A stretch of DNA of 7,918 nucleotides from a virus (taxonomy: Duplodnaviria > Heunggongvirae > Uroviricota > Caudoviricetes): positions 1 to 7,918 of IMG/VR virus record IMGVR_UViG_2698536647_000001; one strand, written 5' to 3'. Both the position numbers and the translations under genes were made by a program. The notes under the pieces are model-generated. The model saw only the letters and a list, made by a program, of their open reading frames with translations. It was not told the origin of the DNA and searched no databases. This document shows positions 2,306 through 7,918 of this stretch, piece by piece (position 1 is the stretch's first letter; the number at the start of each line of letters is the position of its first letter).

Positions 2306-5300
2306 ATGGCTACATCTACTCCGATTAGAGGCCGCAAGGGCGGCAGCTCCAGTTCACGCACCCCGACTGAACAACCAGACGATCTCCAGTCCGTAGCGAA
2401 AGCCAAAATTCTTGTTGCACTGGGAGAGGGCGAATTTGCAGGGCAGTTGACGGCGAAGGATATCTATCTCGATGGCACGCCACTGGAGAATGCAGACGGA
2501 TCGCAAAACTTCAGTGGCGTGGCGTGGGAATTTCGTCCGGGGACTCAGGCACAAAAATATATTCAGGGTATCCCCGGCACAGAAAATGAAATCAGCGTGG
2601 GCACCGAAGTGTCAAGCACCACCGGCTGGACACATACCTTTACCAACACGCAACTGTCAGCCGTTCGCCTGCGCCTCAAGTGGCCATCGCTTTTTAAACA
2701 GGAGGATGATGGCGATCTGGTTGGCTATTCAATTAACTACGCTATTGATCTGCAGACCGATGGCGGCACCTGGCAGACGGTACTTAATACCAGCGTAACC
2801 GGCAAGACAACTTCCGGCTACGAACGCAGCCATCGTATCGATTTACCACAGGCAGGCAGTACATGGACGGTGCGCCTGCGTAAGCTTACGGCGGATGCCA
2901 ACAGCGCGAAAATTGGCGACACGATGACGCTGCAGAGCTACACAGAGGTTATTGACGCCAAACTGCGTTATCCAAATACCGCGCTGCTGTACATCGAATT
3001 CGACTCAAGCCAGTTTAACGGCTCTATCCCGCAAATATCCTGCGAACCGCGAGGGCGTGTAATCCGCGTTCCGGATACGTATGACCCGGAGACCCGCACC
3101 TACAGCGGCACATGGACAGGGGCGTTTAAGTGGGCGTGGACGGATAATCCAGCCTGGATTTTTTACGATCTGGTGGTGAGCGACCGCTTTGGGCTGGGCA
3201 ATCGCCTGACGGCGGCCAATATTGATAAATGGACGCTTTATCAGGTCGCGCAATATTGCGATCAGCCGGTTCCTGATGGTAAAGGCGGTAGCGGCACTGA
3301 GCCTCGCTATACCTGTAACGTGTACGTGCAGGAGAGGAATGACGCCTATACCGTGTTACGTGATTTTGCGGCGATATTCCGGGGCATGACGTACTGGGGT
3401 GGCGATCAAATCGTTGCGCTGGCGGATATGCCCCGCGATGTGGATTACAGCTACACGCGTGCAAACGTGGTTAATGGGCGCTTTACCTATTCGGGCAGCA
3501 CCACCAAAACCCGCTATACCACGGCACTGGTTTCCTGGTCCGATCCGGGTAATGCCTACGCGGATGCGATGGAGCCTGTATTTGAGCAGGATCTCGTTGC
3601 TCGCTTTGGCACAAATCAGCTCGAAATGACAGCCATTGGTTGTACCCGGCAGTCAGAGGCAAACCGCAAAGGACGTTGGGGTATCCTGACCAATAACAAG
3701 GATCGCATCGTGTCGTTCGATGTTGGTCTTGACGGTAAGATCCCACAGCCTGGTTATATCATCGCGGTTGCCGATGAGCTGCTTTCCGGAAAAGTGATGG
3801 GAGGGCGCATCAGCGCGGTTAACGGTCGCGTTATCACGCTTGATCGTGATTCGGCAGCCGCTCCCGGAAGCCGTCTGATGGTTAACCTTCCGTCCGGCGC
3901 ATCGCAGAGCAGGACGATACAGAGCGTAAACGGGCGGGCCGTCACTGTGACAACGGCATACAGCGAAACACCTGCAGTGGAATCGGTGTGGATTGTCGAG
4001 TCTGAAGAGCTTTACGCGCAGCAATATCGCGTTATCAGCGTTACGGATAATAATGACGGAACGTATTCGATTGCTGGCGCTTTGCACGATCCGGATAAAT
4101 ATGCGCGTATCGATACCGGTGCCATTATCGACCAGCGGCCAATAAGTGTAATTCCGCCCGGTAATCAGTCCCCGCCAGCTAATATCGCGATCAGTTCGTT
4201 TTCTGTCGTTCAGCAGAATATCAGCGTTGAGACCATGCGCGTCAGCTGGGACCAGGCGAAAAATGCTATCGCGTATGAGGCACAGTGGCGTCGCAATGAC
4301 GGGAACTGGGTGAATGTGCCGCGCAGCTCCACCACGTCATTCGATGTTCCGGGGATTTATGCAGGACGCTACCTGGTTCGCGTGCGTGCCATCAATGCCG
4401 CCGAAATTTCATCTGGGTGGGGCTATTCAGAAGAGAAAACGTTGACGGGTAAAGTGGGAAACCCACCGAAGCCGGTTGGCTTCATCGCTTCTGAAAACGT
4501 GGTATTCGGTATCGAGCTGAACTGGGGATTCCCGGCGAATACCGAAGACACGCTGAAGACGGAAATTCAGTACAGCCTGACCGGTAGCGAAGATGATGCA
4601 ATGCTGCTGGCCGATGTGCCTTATCCGCAGCGCAAATATCAGCAGATGGGTCTTAAGGCAGGGCAGATTTTCTGGTATCGCGCGCAACTGGTCGACAGAA
4701 CGGGAAACGAGTCCGGGTATACCGACTGGGTGCGAGGTCAGGCCAGCATCGATGTTTCCGATATCACCGATGTGATCCTGGAGGAGATCAAAGACTCCGC
4801 TACGTTTAAAGATCTGATTGAGAGCGCAGTGGACAGCAATGAAAAAATTGCTGGCATGGCTGACGAAATCAAAAACCATGCCGACGAGCTGGAGCAGCAG
4901 GCGAAAGATATACAGGAAAACGCTGACGGGCTGGCGCAGGCGGCGGTAAAAATCGATGAGATTTCCGTTTCAATGGACGGTATGACAGGAGGCGTGAAGA
5001 ATTCGGCAATTGCGATAATCCAGAATGGGCTGGCGCAGGTTGTCAGTCGTCGTTCCCAGACAGCAACAAACGCCGGGAACAGTGCCAGTATAGACAGAGT
5101 GGATACTACGATTGCCGATACCAGCCAGGCGGTCGCACGCGCGCTGGTCACACTGGATGCAGAAGCTGGTGGCAATATCTCTAACTCAACGGACCTGACA
5201 GAAACTCTTGCTGATTTCACCCAGGCTTCGGCAACAAAAATCAACACTCTGACTGTTAAATCAGGCGAAAACAGTGCAGCGATAAACGTCAACGCACAGG

Positions 5301-5761
5301 CTATAGCAGATGTAAACGGTAACCTCAGCGCGATGTATAACATCAAGGTGGGGGTGTCCAGTAACGGGCAGTATTACGCTGCCGGGATGGGTATTGGGGT
5401 TCAAAATACACCCTCCGGCATGCAGTCACAGGTAATCTTCCTGGCAGACCGTTTCGCCGTGACTACTATGGTCGGCGGGACTGTAACACTGCCGTTCGTT
5501 ATCCAGAATGGCCAGGCCATTATCAGGGATACAGTCATTGGCGACGGGACCATAAGCAATGCAAAAATTGGCAATTACATCCAGTCGAACAATTATGTTG
5601 CCGGCTCTGTTGGCTGGAAACTGGATAAGTCCGGGACGTTTGAGAACTACGGTTCGACAGCTGGGGAGGGAGCCATGAAGCAGACCAACCAGACAATCAG
5701 CGTCAAGGATGGCAACAACGTTCTGAGAGTGCAGGTTGGCCGATTAACGGGGGTGTTCTGA
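2306..5761 (+). CDS. J: Tail tip / host specificity protein J (central tail fibre)
   Basis: 1151-aa ORF, about the size of lambda gpJ (about 1130 aa). Segments match my recollection of lambda J (e.g. TWTGAFKWAWTDNPAWIFYDLV...YCDQPVPDG...TEPRYTCNVY versus lambda GIWDGTFKPAYSNNMAWCLWDML...YCDQSVPDG...TEPRITCNAY). There is an FN3-like segment (VSWDQAKNAIAYEAQWRRNDGNW...YLVRVRAINA), an acidic coiled-coil-like stretch and a divergent C-terminus. It follows I as in lambda. Confidence 0.92.
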   Translation: MATSTPIRGRKGGSSSSRTPTEQPDDLQSVAKAKILVALGEGEFAGQLTAKDIYLDGTPLENADGSQNFSGVAWEFRPGTQAQKYIQGIPGTENEISVGTEVSSTTGWTHTFTNTQLSAVRLRLKWPSLFKQEDDGDLVGYSINYAIDLQTDGGTWQTVLNTSVTGKTTSGYERSHRIDLPQAGSTWTVRLRKLTADANSAKIGDTMTLQSYTEVIDAKLRYPNTALLYIEFDSSQFNGSIPQISCEPRGRVIRVPDTYDPETRTYSGTWTGAFKWAWTDNPAWIFYDLVVSDRFGLGNRLTAANIDKWTLYQVAQYCDQPVPDGKGGSGTEPRYTCNVYVQERNDAYTVLRDFAAIFRGMTYWGGDQIVALADMPRDVDYSYTRANVVNGRFTYSGSTTKTRYTTALVSWSDPGNAYADAMEPVFEQDLVARFGTNQLEMTAIGCTRQSEANRKGRWGILTNNKDRIVSFDVGLDGKIPQPGYIIAVADELLSGKVMGGRISAVNGRVITLDRDSAAAPGSRLMVNLPSGASQSRTIQSVNGRAVTVTTAYSETPAVESVWIVESEELYAQQYRVISVTDNNDGTYSIAGALHDPDKYARIDTGAIIDQRPISVIPPGNQSPPANIAISSFSVVQQNISVETMRVSWDQAKNAIAYEAQWRRNDGNWVNVPRSSTTSFDVPGIYAGRYLVRVRAINAAEISSGWGYSEEKTLTGKVGNPPKPVGFIASENVVFGIELNWGFPANTEDTLKTEIQYSLTGSEDDAMLLADVPYPQRKYQQMGLKAGQIFWYRAQLVDRTGNESGYTDWVRGQASIDVSDITDVILEEIKDSATFKDLIESAVDSNEKIAGMADEIKNHADELEQQAKDIQENADGLAQAAVKIDEISVSMDGMTGGVKNSAIAIIQNGLAQVVSRRSQTATNAGNSASIDRVDTTIADTSQAVARALVTLDAEAGGNISNSTDLTETLADFTQASATKINTLTVKSGENSAAINVNAQAIADVNGNLSAMYNIKVGVSSNGQYYAAGMGIGVQNTPSGMQSQVIFLADRFAVTTMVGGTVTLPFVIQNGQAIIRDTVIGDGTISNAKIGNYIQSNNYVAGSVGWKLDKSGTFENYGSTAGEGAMKQTNQTISVKDGNNVLRVQVGRLTGVF

Positions 5762-5762
5762 T

Positions 5763-6065
5763 ATGGCTTATGGAATACAGACCTGGGATGCTTCGGGAAA
5801 CCCCAACAACTACGGAATCAAGCCCGTTTCCGTTGTTGGACGTATACAACTTGCCGCCGGACAAAACTCCGGCAGCTGGTCTTTTACGGTGCCCTCAGGA
5901 ATGAAAGTTGGTTTTGTTCTTTCACTTGATGAAGGAGGTAACAGCGTAGGGCGGCGCATTGTCGCGTCAGGGAGCACAATAACCGTAAGCGCTGCATCTT
6001 CTGTAGGTCTGGGTAATTATCCGGCCTCAAAGTGTGAAGTGGTCGTTTTCATGGAGAAAGCATAA
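5763..6065 (+). CDS. Hypothetical protein, first gene of a post-J module (unknown function; carries WDASG and SGSW motifs)
   Basis: 100-aa ORF whose ATG lies 1 nt after the J stop, with a G-rich SD-like stretch upstream. Its stop overlaps the next start (TAATG). No signal peptide or TM segment is apparent. It shares motifs with the next ORF. Confidence 0.6.
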   Translation: MAYGIQTWDASGNPNNYGIKPVSVVGRIQLAAGQNSGSWSFTVPSGMKVGFVLSLDEGGNSVGRRIVASGSTITVSAASSVGLGNYPASKCEVVVFMEKA

Positions 6066-6739
6066 TGGCCGAATTTGGCGCGATGATATTAATGGACAAC
6101 GGGAACCCATTTGTAACGCCCCAGTCAACGCCTTTTTGTCTTTACGGCAAGTACACTTTCAACTCCTCTGCTAATGGCAGTTCGCAGCAAGTTGCTAAGA
6201 ATATTGCATTAAATGCTGACTACCCTGTGATGGTATTTATCAGGACCACAAATACCGCCCAGCCCACGCCAGTAATATCTTACCGGAACGGCGGAAATGT
6301 ATATGTCGCGGGGGTTAATCCCTATAACCAAAGTTTCACTTTAACGGCGTACGTTTTTGCCATATTCCCGCAGATATTACCGAAATGGGGTTTGGCAATA
6401 TGGGATGCGAGCGGAAAGCTTGTGTTAACTAATGAGTCCCGTGTGCTATCAGACCTGCAGACGGTTGGCACGCCTGGTGCAAACGGCGGGATAAATATTG
6501 ACCAGACGCTGAGCGGGTCATGGGCCGTTGCACCTGCTCAGTTGGGTCAGACCATCATTGTGAATAATTCAACCCAGCCTCCGACTATCTACACGATAAA
6601 TGCTTATTCTTCATGCAGGTTTGACGGGGCCAATACGAGGATAAACGCAGGGGGGACCTCCACTGGGGCAGGTTCACCTGGAGGGGGAACGAATACTGGC
6701 ATTTCATTAACCGCCATAAATACAGCGGCCTATGATTGA
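6065..6739 (+). CDS. Hypothetical protein, second gene of the post-J module (apparent tandem duplication of the upstream ORF's domain; Gly-rich C-terminal tail)
   Basis: 224-aa ORF with GGAG at 6053-6056, 8 nt upstream of the ATG. It contains WGLAIWDASGK and SGSW (compare YGIQTWDASGN and SGSW in the 100-aa ORF), and its N-terminus MAEFGAMILMDNGNP echoes MAYGIQTWDASGNP. It ends in a Gly/Thr/Ser-rich tail (GGTSTGAGSPGGGTNTG). It looks more AT-rich than J by eye. Confidence 0.6.
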   Translation: MAEFGAMILMDNGNPFVTPQSTPFCLYGKYTFNSSANGSSQQVAKNIALNADYPVMVFIRTTNTAQPTPVISYRNGGNVYVAGVNPYNQSFTLTAYVFAIFPQILPKWGLAIWDASGKLVLTNESRVLSDLQTVGTPGANGGINIDQTLSGSWAVAPAQLGQTIIVNNSTQPPTIYTINAYSSCRFDGANTRINAGGTSTGAGSPGGGTNTGISLTAINTAAYD

Positions 6740-6769
6740 TTGATCGTTTTTAGCGATAAATAACATAAT
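6740..6769 (+). promoter_or_regulatory. Candidate sigma70 promoter for the lipoprotein moron
   Basis: TTGATC (6740-6745), an 18-bp spacer, then CATAAT (6764-6769), inside a 110-bp AT-rich intergenic region directly upstream of the lipoprotein gene. This is pattern-based only. Confidence 0.3.
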
Positions 6770-6850
6770 ATTGATCTATCCAATCAATTATACCCACCAG
6801 AATTGTATTGGTATCGTCTAAGATACTGAATTCCTCTGGATACTATCAAA

Positions 6851-7084
6851 ATGAGAAAACTGATTATCTGCATGGCAGGCGCTGTCATGCTTACAGGATG
6901 CGCTGGCGTAATTGAGAAACAGGAACCAGTTTGCAGCGGCACTGCAATCGTTGGCGGTCAGGAAACTACGGTTCAGATTTACGGTGTGCGTAAACAAAAC
7001 AACCAGACGCAGTACCGGGCTGGATATCCTTTCAGCTGGCGCTGGGTAAGTGCGAATACATTTACCGAAACAACCTGCAAATAA
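6851..7084 (+). CDS. Small secreted lipoprotein (moron); possible Cor-like superinfection-exclusion lipoprotein
   Basis: 77-aa ORF. The N-terminus MRKLIICMAGAVMLTGC has a basic n-region, a hydrophobic core and an LTGC lipobox, so a signal peptidase II site is predicted. The +2 residue is Ala, which suggests outer-membrane sorting. The mature part has two further Cys. The gene is bracketed by an AT-rich promoter-like region and a downstream hairpin plus T-run. Its position between J and the tail fibre gene is where lambdoid phages carry cor or lom. Confidence 0.7.
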   Translation: MRKLIICMAGAVMLTGCAGVIEKQEPVCSGTAIVGGQETTVQIYGVRKQNNQTQYRAGYPFSWRWVSANTFTETTCK

Positions 7085-7105
7085 CCCACTACGCTTAAAC
7101 ATAAA

Positions 7106-7128
7106 CCTCGCTCCGGCGGGGTTTTTTT
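7106..7128 (+). terminator. Putative rho-independent terminator after the lipoprotein gene
   Basis: Stem CCTCGC (7106-7111) / GCGGGG (7116-7121) with one G-U pair and loop TCCG, followed by T7 (7122-7128). It lies 22 nt after the lipoprotein stop. Confidence 0.45.
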
Positions 7129-7144
7129 ATTGCCTGGAGAAAAT

Positions 7145-7918
7145 ATGCTTTATAACACCGGCACCATCGCCATTAATGGAAATACCGCCACCGGGACGGG
7201 TACAAACTGGACGGCACCGGCCAGCCAGGTTCGCGCTGGCCAGACAATTATCGTGATGTCTAACCCGGTGCAACTGTTCCAGATTTCATCCGTGAACAGC
7301 GCCACGTCAATGACGGTTACTCCAGCTGCTTCCCCGGCGCTGAGCGGCCAGAAGTACGGCATTCTGGTATCAGACAATATCTCGGTCGACGGCCTGGCAC
7401 AGGCTATGTCACAGCTCATCAAAGAGTACGACGAGAATATTGGCGCGTGGGAGACGTTCGCCACCACCTCAGCAAACCAGAGCATCACCGTTACCATCAA
7501 CGGCACCGCCGTAACCATCCCAGGCATCGGTAAACTTGCGCAGAAAGGGAGCAATGGTGCGCTTGCAATCGCTGACGGCGGGACCGGGGCAACGACTGCA
7601 GAAGACGCTCGCAAAAACTTCGGTTTAGGAAGTAGTGCGACAAAGGATGTCGGAACTGCGGCAGGGAATGTTATGCAGGTGGGAGCTTTTGGGGTTGGTG
7701 CTGTTCTCCAAAATAAGCCCACAGATGCCAGTTCATCCTTCATCAGTGATGCTGATGGCAATACTCTGTGGGCTCCTTCGTATGGCTGTGGGTTTCAGAG
7801 TTCCTACACCGGGCATCGAATTGCGCAGCTGTGGATTACTTACGGTAATGCGGTATTCAGCCGTTTTCTAACAACCACTGACCCTCAAACACCAAAATCA
7901 TCAGTGCCGTGGGCGCAG
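7145..7918 (+). CDS. stf: Side tail fibre protein, N-terminal part (3' end lies outside the window)
   Basis: The ATG at 7145 is preceded by GGAG (7136-7139, 5-nt spacer). My hand translation is open for 258 codons to the window end: MLYNTGTIAINGNTATGTGTNWTAPASQVRAGQTIIVMSNPVQLF... It contains the tail-fibre hallmark ...GALAIADGGTGATTAEDARKNFGLG.... It is missing from the supplied ORF track only because it has no stop inside the window. Confidence 0.8.
   Translation, partial: MLYNTGTIAINGNTATGTGTNWTAPASQVRAGQTIIVMSNPVQLFQISSVNSATSMTVTPAASPALSGQKYGILVSDNISVDGLAQAMSQLIKEYDENIGAWETFATTSANQSITVTINGTAVTIPGIGKLAQKGSNGALAIADGGTGATTAEDARKNFGLGSSATKDVGTAAGNVMQVGAFGVGAVLQNKPTDASSSFISDADGNTLWAPSYGCGFQSSYTGHRIAQLWITYGNAVFSRFLTTTDPQTPKSSVPWAQ

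Follow-up and report, generated by a model that had tools for sequence, protein, structure and literature searches.

A gene pair downstream of J as the most likely detachable, FhuA-binding tail tip of a phi80/T1-type phage

The two open reading frames that follow the central tail fiber gene J in this viral DNA, ORF1 and ORF2, most likely form a detachable receptor-binding tail tip for the E. coli outer-membrane protein FhuA. By sequence they are the gp22/gp23 pair of phi80, of the phi80/T1 type, and it is probable that both are late-expressed virion proteins that constitute a separate central-fiber receptor-binding module in the FhuA-dependent lambda-like siphophages (phi80, HK022, N15, T1, Dhillonvirus). 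For decades T1 and phi80 have served as textbook examples of FhuA (TonA) phages, and the gene pair is the leading candidate for the protein that contacts FhuA. Confirmation of the pair would complete a picture in which lambda-like tails swap receptors by means of a small cassette (J tail, receptor-binding protein [RBP], and exclusion lipoprotein), and would aid in predicting and engineering host range.

The gene pair and its locus

The window, by which we mean the whole 7,918-nucleotide stretch analyzed, is 96% identical in DNA sequence to mEp237 and HK140 and 92% identical to phi80. ORF1 matches PHROG 557 (E = 2.5e-36, residues 1-99 against profile positions 1-100 of 100) and is 98% identical to phi80 gp22, while ORF2 matches PHROG 425 over its full length (E = 1.1e-80) and is 94% identical to phi80 gp23. 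Thus, the first-pass annotation, which had described the two ORFs as uncharacterized and without a known family, is corrected in that respect, as the pair is already in the literature. Its placement of two ORFs of 100 and 224 aa on the same strand downstream of J, in the slot that holds lom in lambda, was upheld. Public annotations name these proteins "outer membrane" or "membrane associated," and the PHROG label of the ORF2 family is "moron." The features of the locus are as follows.

2306..5761, + strand: J, central tail fiber/tip attachment protein, 1151 aa, lacking the lambda-type C-terminal receptor-binding domain (RBD)
5612..5761, + strand: J distal tip segment, approximately residues 1103-1151, GWKLDKSGTFENYG...RVQVGRLTGVF, inherited with ORF1/ORF2 as judged by alignment; putative docking site
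5763..6065, + strand: ORF1, 100 aa, phi80 gp22 homolog; N-terminal arm plus one beta-sandwich (predicted)
5763..5825, + strand: ORF1 arm, residues 1-21, YGIQTWDASGNPNNYGIKP; conservation 0.81-0.87, pLDDT 43-50
6065..6739, + strand: ORF2, 224 aa, phi80 gp23 homolog; two arm-plus-beta-sandwich units (predicted)
6065..6127, + strand: ORF2 N-terminal arm, residues 1-21, FGAMILMDNGNPFVTPQSTP; conservation 0.70-0.84, pLDDT 41-47
6365..6454, + strand: ORF2 interdomain arm, residues 101-130, FPQILPKWGLAIWDASGKLVLTNESRVLSD; conservation 0.81-0.94, pLDDT 44-56; contains the WDASG motif
6740..6769, + strand: promoter-like site 5' of cor, TTGATC-18-CATAAT; a consensus scan match only
6851..7084, + strand: cor, 77-aa lipoprotein of FhuA-directed superinfection exclusion, putative cognate partner of the module; PHROG 1119, E = 7e-37; lipobox LTGC
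7103..7124, + strand: intrinsic terminator after cor, nine-pair stem followed by a T run; annotated in phi80, mEp237, and HK140
7145..7918, + strand: N-terminal part of Stf, the side tail fiber; PHROG tail fiber families, E = 1e-76 to 1e-78; annotated as tail fiber in relatives; runs off the window

The coupling of the three genes that had been proposed is borne out by the letters. The J stop codon, TGA at 5759-5761, is separated by a single base from the ORF1 ATG at 5763, the ORF1 stop and ORF2 start overlap as TAATG (6063-6067), and a purine-rich Shine-Dalgarno-like stretch lies 5' of each of the two starts. The J-ORF1 spacer measures 0-3 nt in 79 of 80 loci and elsewhere reaches ~36 nt (Teewinot) and 48 nt (Sd1). 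A J::ORF1 frameshift fusion was rejected, because the spacer length varies and because ORF1 begins at a start codon of its own, preceded by a Shine-Dalgarno-like sequence. Within the region, promoter and terminator signals were found by consensus scan and in the phi80 annotation at cor only, with none belonging to ORF1 or ORF2; co-expression of the pair with J, as the first-pass annotation had suggested, is supported. The phi80 record describes cor as a moron that encodes a lipoprotein and is served by a promoter and a terminator of its own, and the cor promoter and transcription start fall in the same intergenic region as the promoter-like site described here.

Whether homologs of the pair always follow J had been posed as a check, and the order J, ORF1, ORF2, cor proved to be kept in 80 of 81 related viral loci, with cor adjacent to the module in 80 of 81. 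The same order is found in T1-like phages, Dhillonvirus, and Citrobacter prophages, and the pair also directly follows J in Citrobacter prophages, the T1-like Sd1, Teewinot, and PeterMerian. The numbers of phage records carrying ORF1 (n = 346) and ORF2 (n = 350) and the corresponding taxon counts are nearly equal, and the carriers include strictly virulent phages, for example T1 and Dhillonvirus. Virulent Teewinot, like PeterMerian, encodes its exclusion gene on the opposite strand, while its ORF pair stays with J. The PeterMerian copy of the module is diverged; no receptor for this phage was found in the text of PMC8594841.

The cassette itself has been noted since 2006 (Wietzorrek, as cited in PMC13164509) and has been proposed as a receptor-binding locus since 2021 (PMC8594841). 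It was subsequently modeled (PMC12309495) and genetically linked to FhuA, with a FhuA-specific family and an AF3 receptor model described (bioRxiv 10.64898/2026.04.02.716166). The cassette is reported in the FhuA-dependent phages T1, HK022, N15, ES18, and phi80 and to be absent from non-FhuA relatives, and 10 of 10 BASEL phages that carry it use FhuA (PMC13164509). By analogy with the carriers whose receptors are known, phi80, T1, Teewinot/JLBYU, and the 10 BASEL phages (PMC10373560, PMC13164509), the source phage is presumably FhuA dependent.

The J tail, the arms, and the predicted fold

J contains the Pfam domains FNIII-A_GpJ, Phage-tail_3, and Phage_Tail_Tip, and its relatives in the PDB are F2-pyocin J, T1 gp33, a "J-like gp24" chain, and lambda J. 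Residues 988-1114 align to lambda J residues 840-975, leaving 37 residues compared with 157 in lambda, RBD included (RBD boundary from PMC13455828). In this alignment, the lambda-type extension of ~130 residues past the straight-fiber prism into the Ig-like RBD is absent from the window J, which ends in a tail of the module type, ...MKQTN..ISVKDGN.VLRVQ.G.LTG.., with ORF1 directly after. The Teewinot and Oekolampad J proteins are 92-100% identical up to the last ~50 residues, where identity falls to 39%, whereas Teewinot J and the window J are 20-50% identical overall and 66% identical over the last ~40 residues; J of the T1-like Sd1 has the same C-terminal tail as well. Among 63 distinct J sequences from module-carrying loci, the tail is the best-conserved part of the last 260 residues, and upstream of it J varies among cassette carriers (41-100% identity over the last 200 residues). 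As judged from these comparisons, the last ~45 residues of J are inherited with the ORF pair and not with the rest of J, and a sharp recombination boundary lies ~45 codons before the J end, a point that the present analysis adds. A likeness between J 1107-1116 (DKSGTFENYG) and ORF1 9-18 (DASGNPNNYG), identical at 6 of 10 positions, was dropped as evidence because its E value is 0.29.

The absence of a signal peptide and transmembrane (TM) helix from both ORFs was confirmed (maximum Kyte-Doolittle 19-residue mean 1.2-1.3), and neither contains a lipobox. Consistent with the earlier statement that the pair is not a Lom/Ail-type moron, there is no Ail_Lom Pfam match and no hydrophobic N terminus. 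Pfam gave nothing for either ORF beyond sub-threshold Tailspike_C and DUF1648 matches, neither Pfam nor PHROG linked them to chaperone families of the Tfa or gp38 type, and no enzymatic or toxin domain was found in them.

The predicted structure of ORF2, a model with two low-confidence segments, has the fold of the solved LptD-binding RBP of Oekolampad, consisting of two beta-sandwiches. This clear fold link between a FhuA-type protein and a solved LptD-type RBP is added by the present analysis; according to a 2026 paper, Foldseek and HHpred had returned no matches (PMC13164509). As sequence homology between ORF2 and the Oekolampad RBP is not detectable, with a nonsignificant likeness between the ORF2 N-terminal arm and the RBP N terminus (hhalign E = 0.29 over 13 columns), the fold match could reflect convergence on a common beta-sandwich arrangement. 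A search of PDB sequences found no solved structure matching either family: the ORF2 profile returned nothing at E up to 10, and ORF1 returned only weak matches (E = 0.05), to the C-terminal sandwich of the Sf6 tailspike. Residues 167-207 of Oekolampad gp25 can be aligned to the ORF1 profile with 38% identity over 40 columns at a probability of only 8%, which is a lead only, and BLASTP of the lambda J RBD against ORF1 and ORF2 gave nothing. The Gly-rich C terminus of ORF2, previously described as a flexible tail, is instead predicted to be folded, with residues 190-224 modeled as strands (pLDDT 82-93) and ending in the highly conserved ITAINTAAYD.

The small ORF1 is highly conserved, and divergence is faster in ORF2; within ORF2, the sandwich cores diverge faster than the arms. 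The ORF1 arm is among the best-conserved stretches of ORF1 and contains a 12-residue motif common to ORF2 107-118, and the interdomain arm is the most conserved stretch of ORF2. A further point added here is that the best-conserved segments are those that monomer prediction cannot place. The shared WDASG motif is real: YGIQTWDASG (ORF1 3-12) matches WGLAIWDASG (ORF2 108-117) beyond chance, both for the single pair of proteins (BLASTP E = 0.028) and between family profiles (hhalign P ~5e-6 to 1e-5, probability 82-86%), and its W, D, and G are invariant or almost so in both families.

The first-pass annotation had gone further and read the module as one domain present three times. An arm-plus-beta-sandwich architecture does recur in all three predicted units, and the 12-residue motif is shared by the ORF1 arm and the ORF2 interdomain arm, but wider homology is not significant. 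The SGSW sequences at ORF1 36-39 and ORF2 150-153 are present and collinear, yet alone they are not significant (E = 0.17). When ORF1 was aligned to both halves of ORF2, significance ended after ~12 residues, with only 12 columns significant and E = 0.015-0.38 for extended alignments; ORF1 21-79 runs in register with ORF2 23-85 at an E of only 0.015-0.05, and the ORF2 N terminus, as a degenerate third copy, scores only E = 0.38. A search of the ORF1 profile against 1.84 billion proteins returned ~60 clusters of ~100-aa relatives and repetitive giant proteins, and Foldseek of the ORF1 model against BFVD returned weak matches only (E > 1e-3), to other ~100-aa phage proteins; neither search found an ORF2-like protein.

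A receptor-binding tip and competing explanations

We infer the following arrangement as to the place of the two proteins in the virion, their stoichiometry, their direct binding to FhuA, and what ORF1 and the arms do. J would form a beta-prism shaft followed by the short, module-specific tail of ~45 residues in place of a lambda-type RBD. ORF2 would dock on this tail, with one copy probably capping the whole trimer, and would bind the FhuA barrel, itself a monomer, on its extracellular face. AF2-multimer modeling likewise favored an arrangement in which the 23-kDa protein caps the J trimer as a monomer (PMC12309495); in the T1 cryo-EM structure the distal fiber was not resolved (PMC11945409). 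ORF1, a predicted single beta-sandwich with the same conserved arm, would link J to ORF2 as an adaptor or co-subunit, an assembly factor being less likely. The three conserved arms, predicted to be disordered alone, may fold only when bound to the J tip or to one another. Cor, a lipoprotein expressed from its own promoter, would block FhuA in cells that are infected or lysogenic, and the J tail, ORF1, ORF2, and cor would move among phages as one host-range cassette.

A more specific version, which we regard as speculative and rather doubtful, is that ORF1 and ORF2 together make a pseudo-trimeric cap, in which the 1 + 2 beta-sandwiches contribute three homologous WDASG arms, each folding on the tail of one chain of the J trimer, so that the threefold fiber is converted to a single asymmetric surface for monomeric FhuA. 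If this were true, the FhuA-type pair (100 + 224 aa) and the LptD-type RBP (321 aa), treated in the current literature as unrelated families, would go back to one ancient scaffold, split in the former and fused in the latter.

Among competing explanations, the best placed, itself improbable, is that one or both ORFs are nonstructural chaperones that help to assemble the distal tip of J or the side fibers, comparable to lambda Tfa or T4 gp38/gp57, with receptor specificity residing in the J tail. The location of the pair between J and stf, its co-translation with J, the module-specific J tail, and the small, very conserved ORF1 all agree with such a role, and a structural or chaperone-like function is named as an option in PMC12309495. 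However, a J tail of ~45 residues is too short to serve as a receptor-binding domain for a 22-strand barrel, and ORF2 combines what is predicted to be a bona fide RBP fold with faster divergence, as would be expected if it contacted a receptor. The lack of Pfam or PHROG matches to Tfa, gp38, or similar proteins also argues against chaperones, as does a ~21-kDa band in Littlefixvirus virions, which fits the ORF2 analog by size only (PMC12309495).

We consider it very unlikely that the ORFs are instead accessory parts of Cor-mediated superinfection exclusion, that is, membrane-associated host-cell proteins that help Cor to block FhuA and are not in the virion. This role was assumed in the KanT1 paper (PMC13164509), and the pair always adjoins cor. 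Yet the proteins have no signal peptide, lipobox, or TM segment, and the predicted membrane affinity of their relatives is low (PMC12309495). In addition, the pair is translationally coupled to J while cor has its own promoter and terminator, the exclusion gene of Teewinot and PeterMerian is on the opposite strand, the J tail covaries with the pair, and the predicted ORF2 fold matches that of a solved RBP. Moreover, exclusion of FhuA-dependent phages by Cor alone has been reported (Uc-Mass 2004, as cited in PMC9836094).

It is scarcely credible that the ORFs have nothing to do with adsorption and are instead morons or host-targeting effectors, whether for lysogenic conversion or for injection. 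They fill the lambda lom slot and ORF2 is listed as a moron in PHROG, but their coding sequences overlap and neither a promoter nor a terminator belongs to them. They also occur in the strictly virulent T1 and Dhillonvirus, are obligately paired with a specific J tail, and contain no enzymatic or toxin domain. The earlier suggestion of an injected or host-targeting factor has no support.

Comparison with known systems

Lambda Lom occupies the same slot after J but is a signal-peptide-bearing beta-barrel moron, whereas ORF1 and ORF2 have no signal peptide, Ail_Lom match, or promoter of their own. The lambda J C-terminal RBD, which binds LamB, is a beta-sandwich or Ig-like domain, and ORF1-like proteins are said to resemble it (PMC12309495). 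The closest solved relative of the window J is F2-pyocin J (E = 0), which is also without an RBD. In this Pseudomonas tailocin, J is followed by PyoF11 and PyoF12, with one and two Ig-like domains, the same 1 + 2 layout as ORF1 and ORF2; the authors proposed PyoF11/PyoF12 as a distal receptor module, a predicted role (PMC13455828). T5 pb5/Llp works alike, with a monomeric RBP on a trimeric straight-fiber tip that binds FhuA and a periplasm-facing lipoprotein that blocks the receptor (PMC9586334), and the Cor fold is reported to be Llp-like (PMC13164509).

The LptD-type locus, represented by the gp25 RBP and exclusion lipoprotein of Oekolampad (Bas18) and by Rtp44/Rtp45 (PDB 9RPT; PMC12685063), resembles the window in that its RBP gene adjoins J alongside an exclusion lipoprotein, as the putative RBP gene of the window does. 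The receptor of gp25 is LptD, as opposed to the FhuA proposed for the window pair, and gp25, at 321 aa, acts as one protein without an ORF1-like partner, compared with a total of 324 aa for ORF1 and ORF2. In Oekolampad, the genes for the RBP and for superinfection exclusion lie on the opposite strand, while the window pair is on the J strand. Because the LptD-type locus has no ORF1-like gene and lies on the opposite strand, the role proposed for ORF1 is without a solved precedent.

By contrast, the phi80 gp22/gp23-cor cassette has the same genes, sizes, order after J, cor, promoter, and terminator as the window. This FhuA-type RBP locus downstream of gpJ also occurs in T1, HK022, N15, ES18, the mEp/HK lambdoids, and Dhillonvirus. 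Between it and the window there is no difference of substance, and the window is an ordinary allele of this already described cassette.

Gene content of the distal tail region

The window covers the distal tail region of a phi80-like lambdoid phage, with the following features:

187-942, L
to 1675, K
1663-2253, I
2306-5761, plus strand, J (1151 aa)
5763-6065, plus strand, ORF1, the gene directly after J (100 aa)
6065-6739, plus strand, ORF2 (224 aa)
6851-7084, plus strand, cor, a 77-aa lipoprotein gene
7103-7124, plus strand, terminator after cor
7145 to window end, plus strand, side tail fibre gene (stf), start only

Over window 5600-7150, megablast identity is 96% to mEp237, HK140 and HK225 and 92% to phi80, where the ORF1 and ORF2 counterparts carry no annotation beyond 'gp22; (100)' and 'gp23; (224)'. 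The coupling described in the first-pass annotation is exact at both junctions: the J stop TGA (5759-5761) is followed by one base and the ORF1 ATG at 5763, and the ORF1 stop and ORF2 start overlap in TAATG at 6063-6067. That annotation could name no known family; this locus carries an ordinary allele of the phi80 gp22/gp23 cassette, the probable role of which is published and, for the FhuA type, is a predicted one.

Between the J-ORF1-ORF2 unit and stf, cor forms a self-contained moron with a promoter-like site (6740-6769), an LTGC lipobox and a strong intrinsic terminator; no solved structure was matched by its sequence. A putative 203-aa ORF with a TTG start lies antisense to stf (7150-7761, minus strand), and the phi80 record places a small minus-strand 'gp25 moron' over the stf 5' end at the equivalent position.

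According to the passage of PMC13164509 that cites Wietzorrek et al. 2006, a small protein, a 23-kDa protein and cor occur in the FhuA-dependent phages T1, HK022, N15, ES18 and phi80. All 10 of the 10 BASEL phages carrying the cassette use FhuA (PMC13164509). Dedicated receptor-binding proteins (RBPs) with cognate exclusion proteins were proposed for loci downstream of gpJ by Maffei et al. 2021 (PMC8594841). In a modelling study from 2025, AF2-multimer preferentially caps the J trimer with a single copy of the 23-kDa 'hand-like' protein; the same study saw a ~21-kDa band in Pseudomonas phage virions (PMC12309495). In a preprint from 2026, genome-wide screens, supported by AF3, linked receptor use to a FhuA-specific family encoded here, and GpJ tips were noted to be receptor-specific (bioRxiv 10.64898/2026.04.02.716166). 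The distal fibre is not resolved in T1 cryo-EM (PMC11945409).

Shared motif and predicted architecture

The motif [YW]G-x3-WDASG is present at ORF1 3-12 and ORF2 108-117, and SGSW occurs in both proteins. BLASTP of the pair aligned the 10-residue motif alone (E 0.028), and hhalign of family alignments (31 ORF2 and 20 ORF1 relatives) aligned 12-13 columns at 57-65% probability. Broadening the ORF1 profile to 64 sequences raised this to 82-86% (P about 5e-6 to 1e-5), placing the proposed sharing beyond chance. In each family the motif residues vary little or not at all, so the shared motif is real and subject to selection.

Beyond the motif, profile alignments revealed no significant homology between ORF1 and ORF2. 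The SGSW block is collinear (E 0.17), ORF1 21-79 is in register with ORF2 23-85 (E 0.015-0.05) and the ORF2 N terminus aligns with its middle arm at E 0.38, none of them significant. The ORF1 profile, run against 1.84 billion representative proteins, found a diverse ~100-aa family and no ORF2-like protein. PHROG cross-matches are weak, with 5 of 31 ORF2 relatives matching PHROG 557 and both families touching PHROG 2427 (E about 0.006-0.009).

The ORF2 model (pLDDT 81, pTM 0.77) contains confident beta-sandwiches at 22-103 and about 130-224, and the ORF1 model (pLDDT 78) a single one at 22-100, with predicted strand patterns nearly superimposable between ORF1 and the ORF2 N-terminal half. In all three modelled units a 21-30-residue arm precedes the sandwich. 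Thus, of the proposal that one domain is present three times, the arm-plus-sandwich architecture stands in the models, while homology of the units is not demonstrated, no alignment beyond the motif being significant. The arms (window 5763-5825, 6065-6127 and 6365-6454) are among the best-conserved stretches yet have pLDDT of 41-56, whereas the less conserved cores exceed 90; over the whole of ORF2, pLDDT falls as conservation rises (Spearman -0.59, p 0.003). Because the arms are highly conserved but unplaced by AlphaFold in monomers, this pattern suggests that they fold only in complex. The proposed flexible Gly-rich tail is instead predicted as strands (pLDDT 82-93), and the last ten ORF2 residues are conserved. 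Overall, the first-pass observation is confirmed in part, and its interpretation is supported in part.

Both proteins lack a signal peptide and TM segments, as had been noted. Public 'outer membrane' or 'membrane associated' labels on relatives find no support in the sequences, in which signal peptide, TM segment and barrel are all absent; the labels appear to propagate by annotation transfer.

A probable tail-tip receptor-binding module

Five independent lines, namely synteny, a J lacking a receptor-binding domain (RBD), a module-specific J tail, fold and evolutionary rates, point to ORF1 and ORF2 as a tail-tip receptor-binding module. The order J, ORF1, ORF2, cor is found in 80 of 81 related viral loci, with J-ORF1 spacing of 0-3 nt in 79 of 80. 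The pair likewise follows J in Citrobacter prophages (46% identity), T1-like Sd1, Dhillonvirus Teewinot and Warwickvirus PeterMerian, and relatives occur in 346 (ORF1) and 350 (ORF2) phage records, the taxon counts being almost the same for the two. The module or a Dhillonvirus J, with DNA >90% identical to that of E. coli phages, also turns up in eight 'Campylobacter' phage records, 'Acinetobacter phage NJ01' and 'Pseudomonas phage Motto'; in these the host label is probably wrong or the sequence comes from a contaminating E. coli phage. One 124-aa protein is a natural chimera, its first ~37 residues ORF1-like and joined straight to a side-tail-fibre N terminus, and so is a deletion variant without ORF2 and cor; its source is presumably a prophage in decay.

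Window J 988-1114 aligns to lambda J 840-975, the lambda straight fibre being residues 808-998 (PMC13455828). Only 37 residues remain thereafter, compared with 157 in lambda, RBD included; window J has no RBD of its own. The J proteins of Teewinot (FhuA-type) and Oekolampad (LptD-type) are 92-100% identical and then 39% over the last ~50 residues, while Teewinot and window J are 20-50% identical overall and 66% over the last ~40. Sd1 J ends with the same tail as window J (...MKQTN..ISV.D.N..LRVQ.G.LTG..), the best-conserved part of the last 260 J residues across module carriers. A sharp recombination boundary lies ~45-50 codons before the J end (window 5612-5761, compared with loci L088 and L089); upstream, J tracks phage lineage, and downstream, the receptor module. 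Within the same genomes ORF1 is more conserved than ORF2, and the ORF2 cores vary more than its arms, a rate pattern that would be expected of an adaptor plus a receptor-contacting protein.

Adsorption of T1 and phi80 to FhuA is TonB-dependent. Co-inheritance suggests that the module-specific J tail serves as a docking site; fold match, locus and literature genetics suggest that ORF2 caps it and binds FhuA. ORF1 may be an adaptor or third pseudo-subunit, the weakest step, and the arms would fold on their partner. Cor blocks FhuA, as established in the literature for phi80 and mEp-type Cor. A pure chaperone role, for ORF1 above all, is possible. An exclusion role, guessed for cassette proteins that gave no structural matches by Foldseek or HHpred (PMC13164509), is contradicted: ORF1 and ORF2 lack export signals and are coupled to J rather than cor, and virulent Teewinot and PeterMerian carry the exclusion gene on the opposite strand with the pair kept in the J operon. 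That the pair are morons or effectors is essentially unsupported.

Comparison with pyocin and LptD-type loci

Among solved structures, the one nearest to window J is the central fibre of the Pseudomonas F2-type pyocin (1053 bits); T1 gp33 and lambda J are more distant. The F2-pyocin J, too, is followed by two proteins, one with a single Ig domain and one with two, which have been proposed to be the missing receptor module (PMC13455828). In PeterMerian (Bas05; locus L090, 2189-3094) the pair has diverged (ORF1 53% identical, ORF2 38%), and deletions in the two sandwich cores have shortened ORF2 to 197 aa.

PDB 9rpt_C is Oekolampad gp25, encoded directly after Oekolampad J, and PDB 23gd_D, 'J-like tail tip protein gp24' (1148 aa), matches that J in name and length. 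By cryo-EM, gp25 binds LptDE as a monomer, and the adjoining lipoprotein is an exclusion factor (PMC12685063). Unlike the window, the Oekolampad locus, which is an LptD-type allele of this region (L089, from NC_073089; 3555-4744 of L089, minus strand), has its 321-aa RBP and exclusion lipoprotein both opposite to J, the lipoprotein gene upstream, and no ORF1-like gene. The present analysis adds a fold link to this solved LptD RBP, the exact J-tail boundary, the conserved but unplaceable arms and a size coincidence, 100 + 224 (324 aa) versus 321 aa. On these four grounds we raise the conjecture, one we consider rather improbable, that the FhuA-type pair and LptD-type RBP are split and fused forms, with ORF1 and ORF2 making a pseudo-trimer.
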